Shown: positions 633 to 34,471 of the stretch, piece by piece
Layout of the letters: every line of letters starts with the position of its first letter
How positions within the stretch are numbered: position 1 is the stretch's first letter
Source: a virus
Taxonomy: Duplodnaviria; Caudoviricetes
Length of the DNA stretch: 36,651 bases
Reading direction: 5' to 3' (one strand)
Virus record (IMG/VR): IMGVR_UViG_3300037511_000250
Span: 1-36,651 of that record
Translations under genes and position numbers: made by a program
Notes under the pieces: model-generated
Told to the model about the DNA's origin: nothing
Databases searched by the model: none
Seen by the model: only the letters and a program-made list of their open reading frames with translations

Positions 633-848
633 ATGCTTATTTTAACGCGAAGGATTGGTGAAACTTTAATGGTCGGTAACGATATCAGCATTACGGCTTT
701 GATGGTAAAAGGAAATCAGGTAAGGCTTGGCATAGTCGCACCTAAAGAAGTTGAAGTTCATAGAGAGGAAATTTTCAAGAGAATTCAGGCGGAGAATAAT
801 AAAAGGAATGACAATTTGATAGATGTGCTTAAGAGTATATTGAAATGA
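633..848 (+). CDS. csrA: Carbon storage regulator CsrA/RsmA RNA-binding protein
   Basis: [12 protein letters not shown]...[21 protein letters not shown] signature; GGAGGT RBS. Confidence 0.97.
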
Positions 849-4713: not shown

Positions 4714-4720
4714 AAACACC

Positions 4721-4814
4721 TCCCCCGCTTCCTAGGGGTGGCTGTGATGGGCAGCACACACTAGCGGGGGATATGCTTACTTTTAACACGGAGATGTGCG
4801 TGTGAGATGAGCAT
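4721..4814 (+). ncRNA. Two-hairpin structured intergenic RNA or leader
   Basis: TCCCCCGCT/AGCGGGGGA stem; ATGCTTA/TGAGCAT stem with inner ACACG/CGTGT and GGAGA entering the loop. Confidence 0.45.
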
Positions 4815-4862
4815 TTTAATACGTAAAATAGACAATGTAAATGACTAACAGAAGGAAATAAA

Positions 4863-5203: not shown

Positions 5204-5254
5204 GCAGCCCGTCGAATTACCTAGCGTGATTACAAACCACGGTGGGCTGCGCCA
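5204..5254 (+). ncRNA. Mini tRNA-like RNA (acceptor-type stem, T-arm-like hairpin, GCCA)
   Basis: GCAGCCC/GGGCTGC then GCCA; CGTG-ATTACAAAC-CACG hairpin. Confidence 0.45.
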
Positions 5255-5279
5255 GCTTTAAACGAAGAGGAGAGTATTT

Positions 5280-5684
5280 ATGATTAGCCCGTGGTTGGTT
5301 TATTTTGTTAGCATCTTGGATGGGGTAAGCATTCTTTTTACTGTTTTAGGGATTATTGGCTTAATATTATCGGCAGCATTCTTCATTATTGCGGCTTACA
5401 ACAAGAGTGAGGCTGATGATTCATTTTCTGATAATCGTATTGAAAAATACGAATCTTTGTTTAGTTTTTATCATAAAATGTTTAATAGATTTTTTTATGC
5501 CTCTTTATCATTTTTAGTTATCGGAGCTATAACACCAAGCACAAATCAAATGGCCGCCGTGATTATTATTCCTGAGATAGCTAATTCTCAAGCTTCACAA
5601 GAGCTTCAGAAGTTACCAGCTGATTTAGTAAAATTAGCCGAAAAGTACGTAGAAAAACAGTTAGGATCAGAGGAAAAGAAGTAA
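5280..5684 (+). CDS. Phage membrane protein
   Basis: MISPWLVYFVSILD...TPSTNQMAAVIIIP; TM helices; GAGGAG RBS. Confidence 0.8.
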   Translation: MISPWLVYFVSILDGVSILFTVLGIIGLILSAAFFIIAAYNKSEADDSFSDNRIEKYESLFSFYHKMFNRFFYASLSFLVIGAITPSTNQMAAVIIIPEIANSQASQELQKLPADLVKLAEKYVEKQLGSEEKK

Positions 5685-5737
5685 TTACGAACCCGTGACG
5701 TAGTGTCACGGTTTGAGTTAGTAGAAATGTAGGATAT

Positions 5738-5968
5738 ATGATTGATTCCATAGAGAAACTTTTGGCATTTAAATGCTCATGCGGGTGTATTCACTTTAGT
5801 GAATTTCATGAAATTTACCCTGAACAGCTTCGACATATTAAGTGCATGAACTGCTGGAAAAAGCATGCAGTTCGGACAGAAATAAAGAATGATAAAAGAG
5901 ATGAAAGGATCCTTTCGGAATCAGCTGCTAGAATTCTTAAGGAATTTGAAAAAAATGGAATAATATAG
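5738..5968 (+). CDS. Zinc-ribbon hypothetical protein
   Basis: CSCGC and CMNC motifs. Confidence 0.65.
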   Translation: MIDSIEKLLAFKCSCGCIHFSEFHEIYPEQLRHIKCMNCWKKHAVRTEIKNDKRDERILSESAARILKEFEKNGII

Positions 5969-5979
5969 AAAAAGTTAAT

Positions 5980-6130
5980 GACATACGCGGCGACGATGAA
6001 GTCGATTATCTGGCTTAACTAGTCAGCTCTAAAGTGGATGTGCGCCTATAGAAATATAGGTTTCCTGTTGGTCAGGATGAAAAAAACTATAATTCCACCT
6101 TAAGGTAACCAATCCTTACGTATGCCGCCA
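5980..6130 (+). ncRNA. tRNA-like-ended multi-hairpin RNA
   Basis: GACATACG/CGTATGCC+GCCA closing stem (one mismatch), TAAGG/CCTTA T-arm-like hairpin, several internal stems. Confidence 0.55.
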
Positions 6131-6272
6131 TAGTGCGACACCTGCAATGCTTATGCAACGCAGAAATAGGGTTCCGAGTTATTAGGAAATTCCGAAGAGC
6201 TTGAAAAAGCGTGGTTTCTGGCGACTTAAGTTAAACGGTGTGACTTTTCCGGTTTCAGAGTAAACCGGTTTT

Positions 6273-6382
6273 GGGATTATCTTCGAGTGTTCGAGTGTAA
6301 CGCTAAGCACAAGGGAAATTTGAATCTTTAGCGCAATTGGCCGAAAGGTATCGCAAGCGTATCGCCCTTAGATATCCCACCA
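6273..6382 (+). ncRNA. Structured RNA ending in ACCA
   Basis: GGGAT(T)ATCT/AGATATCCC+ACCA; CGCTAA/TTAGCG stem; GCC-GAAA-GGT tetraloop. Confidence 0.45.
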
Positions 6383-6698: not shown

Positions 6699-6715
6699 GG
6701 GTACAGTTTGTACCC
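6699..6715. terminator. Hairpin between convergent arms
   Basis: GGGTACA-GTT-TGTACCC between stops at 6690 (+) and 6715 (-); no clear U tract. Confidence 0.4.
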
Positions 6716-7314
6716 TAGCTCAAAATAATGCCGCAAATAGGGTCTATCTGTGGGCATTTTGAGAAATCTCCTGGCGTTACATATCCGCAACTAGTAGGCA
6801 TGTAAATACCAACAGATTTAAAACATTCGTAAACATATTCTGAGCATATGTAATCATCGTCAGGCTCAGGAAGATTGCAGTAATTCCTTCTAACGCCTGT
6901 CGCTATTCGATAACCAATCCTAAATATCTCGCTCTTATCATAGCTGTGCCCCAAAAGATCAAAAGCTTTTTTTGAGAGTTCTTTTATCTTTTCTTTTCTA
7001 AAATCACGGTGCCTGGCTATAAGCAGTTTTCCGTCATATGGCTTTCTTGAGCCGTTGTAATTTGATACGTATGACGAAAGCGTTATCATCCTAACCCCGA
7101 TGTCTTCTACGCTTTCCATTACCATAATTCTGTCTACATCATCATGCCTTAATACAAAAGCAACATGCGACCAAATACTATCCGTAGCTTTTTGAATTGC
7201 TCTTGAGAAATCCCCATTTCCTGAGCACAGCAAAATGTCACCGGACTTTATTTCATTGCGCGCCTGGTCATAGGTGAGGTCTATGATGTCTGGGTATTCG
7301 CTCATGACGGACAT
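6715..7314 (-). CDS. Permuted papain-like amidase (YiiX/YebB, C92, permuted NlpC/P60)
   Basis: IKSGDILL, WSHVA (His), G.SYD, YICSEYV (Cys), VTPGDF in permuted order. Confidence 0.9.
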   Translation of the reverse strand: MSVMSEYPDIIDLTYDQARNEIKSGDILLCSGNGDFSRAIQKATDSIWSHVAFVLRHDDVDRIMVMESVEDIGVRMITLSSYVSNYNGSRKPYDGKLLIARHRDFRKEKIKELSKKAFDLLGHSYDKSEIFRIGYRIATGVRRNYCNLPEPDDDYICSEYVYECFKSVGIYMPTSCGYVTPGDFSKCPQIDPICGIILS

Positions 7315-26734: not shown

Positions 26735-26773
26735 CGAAAGAAAACCCCCTAGAGTTGTGCTTCAGTGAGAGGC

Positions 26774-26995
26774 TTAGGGGGTGTTGTTAACAGTAGTCGA
26801 TCTGAGAATCTTTCCCCAGTTTTTCCCAAACTTTGATTTCATAAAGTCGTTCAAATCTCCGGCTAAATTCTTACCAACTTTTTTGCCATTCTTTATACCC
26901 CACGCGCCCGCAAAATTCTTAATAAATCTAATTTCTTCCATCCTCAGAAGAAAGTTCATTTTTATGCTGGCATAGGCATTTAAGTCAAGCATCAC
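26774..26995 (-). CDS. Hypothetical protein
   Basis: 73 aa, GTGA coupling. Confidence 0.55.
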   Translation of the reverse strand: MMLDLNAYASIKMNFLLRMEEIRFIKNFAGAWGIKNGKKVGKNLAGDLNDFMKSKFGKNWGKILRSTTVNNTP

Positions 26996-32941: not shown

Positions 32942-33053
32942 TTCAAATATGAATTGAGCTTAAATTGCTATTTTATTCAAAAACGCATAACATTGCGGAA
33001 ATTGTCAATTATTAATTGATGGGTTAAAAATGAGGAGGATTTTCAAAAATGAC
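32938..33053. promoter_or_regulatory. OR-like operator set
   Basis: TCAATTCA-AATA-TGAATTGA (32938-57), TTATTCAAAAACGCATAA (32973-90), ATTTTCAAAAATGAC (33039-53). Confidence 0.7.
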
Positions 33054-33690
33054 AACACCAGGTGAAAGAATACGCGAGGCAAGATTTGTTCAAAGAATGA
33101 GCCAAGCGCAACTTGCAAAAAATATTCCAATGCCCGGCGCTATTTTATCAAAGATTGAAAGAAATGTTATAAAAGAATCAAAATATCATAGACTTATCTC
33201 TAATTTTTTAAAAATAGATTTTAACTGGATGATGACGGGAGAAGGCTTTAAGCGGGAAGACGATATTTACGGAGAAAATGATAAGAATTTTCCGATTCTT
33301 GAAGGTTCGGAGGTCGTCCTGTGGTGCTTGAACAAATTATCTTCAAAAGAAATTTTTGTTCAAGAAAGAAAGTTTTGCTCTAACCCATATGGAAAATCAG
33401 AAAGAAAAAGAAAATTTGCCTTTAGGATTTCAGACGATTTTATGATGACAGACAGGGGAATAAGTTTTCATCCTGGAACGGTTGTTATTTTTGACCCAGA
33501 TAGAAAATTCAATAACAATGACTTTGTTCTGGTCATGACGTCCACTGGTTTGCCTGTACTTTATCAGTATGTGATAGCTGGGGACATTCCGCTTTTAAAG
33601 CATCTCAATCCCAACTATCCGATTCAAGAACTTACGATTAGGCAATCAATTATAGGCGTTGCTGTTGCAAGACTTGATGTATTTTACTAA
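33049..33690 (+). CDS. cI: CI-like repressor (XRE HTH plus degenerate S24 domain)
   Basis: GERIREAR...MSQAQLA...LSKIE; FA.RI..D.M...F.PG...FDPD; LNPNYP; IIGV. Confidence 0.88.
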   Translation: MTTPGERIREARFVQRMSQAQLAKNIPMPGAILSKIERNVIKESKYHRLISNFLKIDFNWMMTGEGFKREDDIYGENDKNFPILEGSEVVLWCLNKLSSKEIFVQERKFCSNPYGKSERKRKFAFRISDDFMMTDRGISFHPGTVVIFDPDRKFNNNDFVLVMTSTGLPVLYQYVIAGDIPLLKHLNPNYPIQELTIRQSIIGVAVARLDVFY

Positions 33691-34041: not shown

Positions 34042-34086
34042 ATTTTCAAAAATGACTTGACAGCCTTATTCAATATGACATAACAT
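34042..34086 (+). promoter_or_regulatory. PL-like promoter with OL-like operators
   Basis: TTGACA(34057)-18 bp-TAACAT; ATTTTCAAAAATGAC at 34042 and TTATTCAATATGACATAA at 34066 match the OR boxes. Confidence 0.7.
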
Positions 34087-34245
34087 ATCTTCCATACGGT
34101 CACAGAACAAAAGAAACTAACTACTAAACAAGCTTATAAGATACCAACAATTGCCGTACCTAATTAAAGACTTGGGCAGCCCTTCATACGGCTAATATCC
34201 CAAGTATTCACCCCGCCGGAGGTGAGCCCAGAGTCCGGCATTATA

Positions 34246-34471
34246 GACCTAATCGTGGCGATACAGAGTAAATCGCAACATCCAAGTAGTTTTAGCGCTT
34301 GGAGAAACACTGAAATGTGTTTTTTATTTAAAAAAATAAATATTACAAGAAAATAATTGTTCCCCCTTTTTTGAGGGGGTTACAGGAGATGTAGTCGGCG
34401 AAAGTTTTCTTGTGGCTACCAAGATAATTTAGTGCTTTCGTACGTGGTGCAATTCCACTATTAGGTCATCA
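34246..34471 (+). ncRNA. Large tRNA-like-ended structured RNA in the PL leader
   Basis: GACCTAAT/ATTAGGTC+ATCA; GTGG-TGCAATT-CCAC T-arm; multiple internal hairpins; followed by T7. Confidence 0.55.

Follow-up and report, generated by a model that had tools for sequence, protein, structure and literature searches.

Candidate anticodon-less, tRNA-framed RNAs with an acceptor branch of 13 bp, encoded in the early operon of a P22-like phage

Phage T5 encodes RNA1 and RNA2, each annotated as 'tRNA-like stable RNA with unknown functions', and the same record annotates RNA I, RNA III and RNA IV as stable RNAs. RNA2 (rna2, T5s06; NC_005859 32959-33083) has an 8-bp acceptor stem, a 2-nt linker, a 5-bp D stem with an 8-nt GG D loop, a 5-bp T stem, discriminator A and an incompletely encoded CCA, and it has no anticodon arm. 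Phage T4 species 1 RNA (RnaC), which has been detected on Northern blots, combines a long interior with a canonical T arm that is followed by 13 nt, A and an incomplete CCA; extracts of two papers call its role unknown (PMC9697503, PMC3014915). Among tRNAs, a 13-bp acceptor branch is described only for tRNA-Sec in the available part of PMC5389517, and the bacterial form is 8/5. The same excerpt describes allo-tRNAs with irregular acceptor stems from soil metagenomes and phages, some of which are thought to be non-translating and lie near toxin-antitoxin genes (PMC5389517). YrlA Y RNAs (excerpt of PMC4201824) and tmRNA are also non-decoding tRNA mimics with a T arm. According to a section of PMC10731613, RNase P prefers U at -1, G at +1, a 12-bp helix, a T loop and RCCA, and it also cuts extended stems such as that of C4. 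Here we compare with these systems a set of RNA gene candidates from a putatively temperate soil phage.

The window, that is the whole stretch of DNA analysed, is a complete virus record of 36,651 bases (about 36.6 kb, rated complete). PHROGs and Pfam identify it as a P22-like podophage whose minus strand carries genes for the portal, coat, DNA ejection and tail, and further give a CI-like repressor, a Cro-like gene, a Gam/Gp157-like protein and a CsrA protein. The 68 proteins scanned with PHROGs and the 26 scanned with Pfam included no integrase, and neither a partition gene, despite the repressor and Cro-like genes, nor an N-like antiterminator was identified in the window by these two databases. 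ARAGORN found no tRNA genes in it. BLASTN of its regions against cultured phages returned short chance matches only, and contigs from two DNA sequencing runs, whose cover of the window is patchy, contained no variants. A neighbouring protein has its nearest genome matches (50-54% identity) in records labelled Coxiellaceae or Gammaproteobacteria, and a phage contig that carries an element has been binned with a genome of the same order as the Coxiellaceae-labelled matches, a weak hint at the order of the host.

The record is permuted, such that a plus-strand early operon runs from a promoter match at 34057-34086 across the record end to about 6690. The CI-like repressor gene (33049-33690, plus strand) defines the pL side, a CsrA-family gene (633-848, plus strand) lies within the operon, and the Peptidase_C92 gene (6715-7314, minus strand), the last late gene, converges on it. 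The plus-strand promoter match is of the sigma-70 type (10/12) and occupies the pL position downstream of the repressor gene. Since the search for such promoters gave four matches against 3.7 expected, it is position and conservation that carry weight for this one; the arrangement is repeated in two related phages (G003 and G083 below), and the match is likely to be the start of the early transcript. A leader motif just past it (34093-34104, plus strand) was matched in two of 647 loci, one of them G003. Between this motif and the first of the elements described below, the plus-strand leader (34105-34245) contains three further hairpins, and the G003 leader likewise closes a stem using the shared motif. 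Because no N-like gene was identified, this leader could be an antitermination element.

A sequence-only reading of this DNA had proposed that four intergenic plus-strand segments form one family of RNAs with tRNA-like ends and non-tRNA interiors. We confirmed the positions, strand, intergenic setting and tails of all four, namely A (5204-5254, GCCA), B (5980-6130, GCCA), C (6273-6382, ACCA) and D (34246-34471, ATCA), with D at the head of the early operon and A, B and C near its end. The single family did not hold, as D and, loosely, B fit a tRNA frame whereas A and C have no T arm. Likewise, a T-arm-like hairpin abutting the 3' strand had been seen in three segments and is present in D and B alone, and of the four tails read as tRNA-like ends, NCCA occurs in A, B and C and not in D. 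The proposed 7-9 bp terminal stems describe D (8/8 pairs) and C (bulged, about 9 bp) and, with a mismatch, B (7/8), whereas A has 11 contiguous pairs. Folding energies were compared with 200 dinucleotide shuffles of the plus strand, giving z scores of -3.1 for A, -2.6 for B, -0.8 for C and -5.1 for D. All four have G at +1, U precedes A, B and C, and RCCA is confined to these same three.

Element D, 226 nt in length, is a well-supported tRNA-framed RNA gene candidate. It is made up of a fully paired 8-bp acceptor, a D arm (34258-34276, plus strand; 5 bp with a 9-nt loop, and AG where tRNAs have GG), about 170 nt of hairpins, a T arm (34443-34459, plus strand; 4/5 pairs), discriminator A and the tail TCA. 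The T loop, TGCAATT, is identical in four relatives. No arm of 5 bp with a 7-nt loop follows the D arm, which bears out the earlier view that canonical anticodon arms are missing. The interior of D folds better than its shuffles (z -2.9) and its reading frames are interrupted by stops. The tRNA-like fold lies 1.5 kcal/mol above the free minimum; in an alternative fold a continuous helix replaces the T arm. D starts about 160 nt past the pL-like promoter.

Element B (151 nt) joins the acceptor, the abutting T arm and the discriminator in the same way as D, and A and C do not. It has an acceptor with 7/8 pairs and one A-C mismatch, a shortened D loop (5991-6004) and a T arm (6101-6118) with 5/5 pairs and a non-canonical 8-nt loop. 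Its start resembles that of a 144-nt member in a related phage (G002), relative to which the D loop is shortened and the T loop has drifted, and the elbow signature described below appears to be lost. In the isolated RNA a rival closing stem is 1.5 kcal/mol better, and the pair probability of the closing stem is 0.08 alone and 0.24 with flanks; the interior folds better than shuffles (z -2.6). B is a degenerate, eroded member of the 8/5 family.

A bare descriptor of a 7-bp stem followed by NCCA performs at chance level, with 11 matches per strand of the window, most of them inside genes. When the acceptor, an abutting T arm and the tail were combined, B and D were the two matches in the window, whereas 150 shuffles averaged 0.07 and never reached two; this descriptor and its cut-off were written after B and D had been seen, and as it was shaped on them the relatives are the fair test.

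Relatives were collected with the Peptidase_C92 protein as bait. Its alignment yielded 10 viral, 80 metagenome and 46 genome loci, and six related phage records reached through it were read almost whole. Five of these six records carry one or two 8/5 (13-bp) elements, which measure 215 and 159 nt in G001, 157 and 144 nt in G002, 150 and 178 nt in G003, 138 nt in G004 and 113 nt in G014; none was found in G005, which is 59% complete. All the elements that were placed (G014 is not among them) are intergenic in the early operon. The G003 pair sits in tandem after the promoter and leader motif common to the window, and phage contig G083 has the same layout, a promoter followed by elements of 125 and 220 nt. 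Further members were found in G011, G012 and G013, which were reached through element patterns and hence stand outside the census. In G001 to G005 the descriptor gave seven matches, one of them an ordinary tRNA-Pro, against 0-1 in 20 shuffles. With a descriptor allowing both 8/5 and 7/5, six of the eight elements longer than 100 nt in the window and G001 to G003 are 8/5. The 46 bacterial loci around the C92 gene (684 kb) contained no element longer than 80 nt with 8/8 acceptor pairs, and partial loci of the more distant C92 phages L010, L011 and L013 contained no element. A repressor search in the relatives gave no match.

Several further features were noted. In G003 a tRNA-Pro body has an anticodon loop swollen to 44 nt (L220:10755-10868, plus strand) and is missed by ARAGORN and Rfam, and G002 contains an intact tRNA-Pro for comparison (L218:12251-12327, plus strand); the swollen gene is a possible snapshot of how such mimics arise. 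In G012 a 128-nt member, a 106-nt member and a 73-nt tRNA-like gene lie in a row (L653:16764-17127, minus strand), the acceptors of the two members being near-identical; their elbow bases are AG/GC and GG/UC, respectively, which suggests tandem duplication with an elbow switch. One false positive of the descriptor (L068:5282-5417, plus strand) is the 3' fragment of a tRNA that closely follows an integrase-like gene and is probably an attachment site. Short hairpin motifs, which we take to resemble the ends of IS200/IS605-family elements, occur just upstream of the tRNA-like elements in G001 (L012:11063-10994, minus strand) and of the A-type hairpin in G004 (L008:3709-3742, plus strand).

Because MAFFT cannot align the interiors, pairing was counted by script from the anchored ends and not with a covariance model. 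In 11 anchored members, D and T5 RNA2 included, the acceptor, D stem and T stem are paired in 195 of 198 cells. The stem sequences differ among members, with three to five pair types at most acceptor positions, and pairing is kept. Most members were chosen for acceptor and T-stem pairing and those counts are partly circular; the D stem, on which the descriptor places no demand, pairs in 54 of 55 cells. Furthermore, L352, L440 and G083 were found with a D-arm pattern alone and also have the acceptor and the T arm. In tRNA, D-loop positions 18-19 contact T-loop positions 55-56 and so make the elbow. Among the 11 anchored members, eight have D-loop GG with T-loop UC and three, D included, have AG with GC; two members found afterwards are also AG/GC, bringing this variant to five. 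The switch may have been one inherited event. B, the 150-nt element of G003 and the 125-nt element of G083 lack a standard D loop. Across 13 members, the energy needed to impose the tRNA-like fold is 0-4.3 kcal/mol. The idea of tRNA mimicry around non-tRNA interiors is upheld, in that homologues show compensatory changes; no Rfam family covers these elements, and their ends suit RNase P.

The remaining parts of these RNAs are far more variable. Across 17 elements the interiors span 49-169 nt, show no mutual BLAST match, are mostly no more stable than their shuffles (median z about -0.9) and in 15 cases have no anticodon-arm-like structure after the D arm. Tails include A-CCA, A-TCA, A-CTT, A-AAT and others, such that CCA is encoded in only part of the family, and the discriminator is A in 14 of the 17; A73 together with an elbow belongs to the leucine identity elements of tRNA. 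In 11 members, pair 3 of the acceptor is C-G, A-U or U-A. The gap between the element and the next start codon is 13-28 nt in many members, with a U-rich trailer.

Two scans of IMG/VR with a fixed T loop, register (13 nt) and tail and with unconstrained stems listed 120 of about 200 and 121 of about 240 matches; with the register fixed, the relative frequency of 8/5 and 7/5 is not readable from them. Among the matches listed for the ACCA tail (95 distinct), 33 have a perfect T stem against 1.9 expected and 30 the acceptor against 11.7 expected, and 19 have both stems. For the ATCA tail (99 distinct among the matches listed) the T stem is enriched, at 10 against 2.0 expected, and the acceptor is not (14 against 12.5); four have both. 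Two marks that had not been selected for were also seen in 22 such elements among the matches listed, namely U at -1 in 15 (background 0.28) and GG in the D-loop zone in 20 against 8.8 expected. Several elements from these scans sit in tRNA clusters of large phages. The D-arm pattern gave 38 distinct contexts in IMG/VR, five of them full elements, of which three had served to seed it. Run over 86 + 206 bacterial genomes, it gave 12 matches against 18 in a reversed control, and the one full element among the 12 is that of the phage contig G083. Among the viral contigs, several carry GC-rich 8/5 elements of 243-270 nt (L297:106-375 and L259:133-375, element strand), which share interior blocks and form a separate subfamily.

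Elements A and C are of a simpler build. A (51 nt) is a hairpin with an 11-bp closing helix and GCCA, and the early operon of G004 contains a hairpin of equal length with which it aligns without gaps, 47 of 96 positions being identical with flanks included; since the next best alignment scores 44, sequence alone is not decisive. A strict descriptor of the hairpin plus NCCA gave three matches in 386 kb against 0.27 in shuffles, and two of them are A and the G004 hairpin. Four of the 11 A-type pairs change on both sides over three sequences, the third of which (L469) is only a candidate picked by the A-type pattern scan. The G004 hairpin is a likely counterpart of A. A wider family did not emerge, as the 107 distinct matches of the A-type pattern in IMG/VR showed no enrichment of the free pairs. 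The M3 RNA of phi80 was considered as a model for A and rejected, being annotated as an oop homologue and folding with a terminator end, unlike A. For the protein encoded between A and B, a search of viral contigs yielded no relative.

C (110 nt) has a bulged closing stem and ACCA and lacks a T loop. G001 has at the equivalent site a 142-nt 7/5 tRNA-like element with a proper T arm; the first 20 bases of the two are loosely alike and they share an internal 9-mer, and by this sequence comparison C is likely to be a shortened counterpart of it. No third copy appeared, in that 13 matches to a C-type pattern were found and G001's own copy alone fits. The 142-nt non-coding spacer between B and C (6131-6272, plus strand) ends in a 7-bp hairpin (6249-6268) and has no significant structure (z -0.7). 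A and C, with one counterpart each, are plausible as simpler candidate RNase P substrates.

Placed beside the described RNAs, D shows the features looked for in the class of T5 RNA1/RNA2 and T4 RnaC, namely the acceptor, T arm and discriminator, a D arm capable of forming an elbow, and a long interior that replaces the anticodon arm, and RNA2 agrees with the 8/5 family in its stem lengths, linker, D loop, discriminator and incomplete CCA. D differs from RNA2 in its AG/GC elbow and in being 100 nt longer, and the interiors gave no BLAST match to RNA2. RNA I, a stem and GCCA without a T arm, is like C and A, and the run of RNA1, RNA I and RNA III resembles B, spacer and C. T5 is however a lytic phage whose RNAs lie in a large tRNA cluster, whereas here they lie in the early operon of a small repressor phage without tRNA genes. 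T4 RnaC keeps the 13-nt register of the family and differs in that its acceptor is paired at only 5/8 positions, it has no such 5-bp D arm, and it is expressed late from a tRNA cluster. The tRNA-framed elements are real and of the same kind as these catalogued RNAs, and the earlier suggestion of an undescribed system falls. What is new is the 13-bp subfamily, the elbow covariation and the early-operon site in small phages without a tRNA cluster. Outside the original T4/T5 work, full-text searches of largely open-access literature turned up no account of a phage RNA class that is 8/5 and lacks an anticodon.

The other tRNA-related classes are more distant. The family has the 13-bp branch of bacterial tRNA-Sec (RF01852) but lacks its UCA anticodon arm, has discriminator A and a 5-bp D stem, and stays below the Rfam gathering score; some short members receive weak tRNA or tRNA-Sec scores (23-34 bits against a tRNA-Sec cut-off of 47) and long members none. 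The 7/5 branch and 7-nt anticodon loop of canonical tRNA (RF00005) are not found in the window elements. Allo-tRNAs, by the excerpt of PMC5389517, are 8/4 or 9/3 (12 bp) with an anticodon arm, whereas the family is 8/5 (13 bp) without one. In contrast to YrlA, the family has true 5' and 3' acceptor ends, with no Rfam YrlA match, and no Ro/TROVE match indicating a Ro60 gene was found among the 68 (PHROGs) or 26 (Pfam) proteins of the window. Compared with tmRNA there is no G3-U70 and no tag frame, and ARAGORN and Rfam are negative. As the earlier reading had proposed to check, we ran both programs over the window, where ARAGORN gave no gene and the five Rfam matches at E<=5 all fall outside the segments.

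In our preferred model, to which we give a probability of about 0.45, D and, loosely, B would specify the upper half of a tRNA without an anticodon, processed from the early transcript by host tRNA-processing enzymes and acting in trans, as a stable RNA, as a decoy for host proteins that read the elbow or the acceptor end. Both encode an acceptor, D arm and T arm, with a 13-bp acceptor branch predicted and no anticodon. They would very probably be transcribed from the pL-like promoter. As the elements fit most RNase P preferences, their release from this transcript is likely on sequence grounds, and the 5' end would probably be cut by RNase P at G+1, the 3' end trimmed in the U-rich trailer and CCA added where it is not encoded. 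A part in decoding is very unlikely. The added pair in the acceptor branch would prevent use by EF-Tu and the ribosome, much as happens with tRNA-Sec, which is rejected by EF-Tu (excerpt of PMC9976931). The function would lie somewhat more probably in the tRNA-like half than in the interior. Because the acceptor branch and the elbow are under selection, unlike the interior, a partner that recognises the shape of a tRNA is indicated, and a decoy would be the most likely function when set against a cargo scaffold or a cleavage signal in cis. Defence enzymes that target tRNA exist and would be the likeliest partner, although we put this step well below even odds and the observations single out no particular protein. 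For A and C the model foresees simpler substrates of RNase P with an extended stem, comparable to T5 RNA I or P1 C4. Several observations speak against the main reading, namely the A at -1 of D, its competing continuous helix and the ambiguous closing stem of B. Furthermore, RNase P measures 12 bp, so a 13-bp branch is a non-optimal substrate, and as an encoded CCA is confined to some members, recognition of RCCA by RNase P and decoy activity at the 3' end would both be weaker, unless CCA is added later.

The large interiors, of which those of D and B beat shuffles, raise the question of whether the tRNA frame is a natural scaffold that releases and stabilises a cargo, the variable hairpins being the working part that binds a host or phage protein as an aptamer or sponge. 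The contrast between the swollen tRNA-Pro of G003 and the normal gene of G002 indicates that cargo can be grafted onto such a body, and part of PMC4201824 suggests that the YrlA tRNA module may protect its RNA. However, no interior sequence is common to the 17 elements, even to those in the same pL-leader position, most of them are no more stable than shuffles, and a plain 7/5 frame would suffice for processing, yet 8/5 recurs; we consider a scaffold rather unlikely. Slightly less probable is that the elements punctuate a long early mRNA in cis, as RNase P/RNase E cut sites or antitermination elements, with the released RNA a by-product. The place of D shortly after the pL-like promoter, the similar place of the tandem elements in G003 and G083, the U-rich trailers just before start codons and the lack of an identified N-like antiterminator would all suit such a role, but a compact operon predicts short gaps to the next gene anyway, the tandem pair of G001 closes its operon with no downstream gene, and T5 RNA2 and T4 RnaC, both annotated as stable RNAs, have their genes within tRNA clusters.

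If the segments were decaying tRNA genes or attP remnants that no longer serve a function, this would account for the eroded look of B and C beside their counterparts, and the L068 fragment by an integrase-like gene did score in the same descriptor. The retention of both acceptor strands and a full D arm with compensatory changes largely refutes this for D, the 13-bp register is unlike that of normal tRNA and the window has no detected integrase, which together make decay very improbable as a general account; it may apply to B or C alone. Least probable of all is an antisense immunity RNA of the C4/CI type or a CsrB-type sponge for phage or host CsrA, both of which had been suggested from the sequence. 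The operon does encode CsrA, in G002 one element directly precedes csrA, and C4 is, in the consulted part of PMC10731613, an RNase P substrate whose extended stem is like that of A. Against the sponge, GGA counts are at background (observed/expected 2/2.5 in D, 2/1.7 in B, 2/1.2 in C and 0/0.6 in A), and G012 and G013 carry elements and gave no csrA match. Against antisense action of the P1/P7 type, no complementary target is repeated: complementary 11-mers are single and scattered (one for A, two for B, two for C, and for D mostly A/T runs), these being raw counts without a null. Rfam gave no C4, CsrB or Rsm match. A spliced intron was also considered and rejected, since no anticodon halves flank the interior, the interiors share nothing and the 13-bp branch would persist; intron models were covered by Rfam only.

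The family separates selected parts (the 13-bp branch, the D/T elbow and discriminator A) from free ones (the interior and the encoded CCA), and small phages without a tRNA cluster keep such RNAs at the head of the early operon. Standard annotation with ARAGORN and Rfam misses the long members entirely. A bolder reading, which we hold to be possible but doubtful, is that a 13-bp branch and an elbow without an anticodon mark an uncatalogued, widespread class of phage RNA that serves as a counter-defence sponge for tRNA-attacking enzymes. If so, the RNA would be among the first made after infection or induction and kept from the ribosome by its extra pair, and the same reading would also explain T5 RNA2 and T4 RnaC, which have gone unexplained for about 50 years.

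Two further structures were noted in the window. At 26744-26781 on the minus strand an Rfam abiF match lies slightly under the cut-off (34.9 against 37 bits); this is a GC-rich hairpin followed by a T run, and it is probably a terminator ahead of the late genes. The intergenic plus-strand region 4714-4862, upstream of the gene that precedes A, contains a GC-rich hairpin (4724-4770; z -2.0) that is terminator-like on the minus strand.
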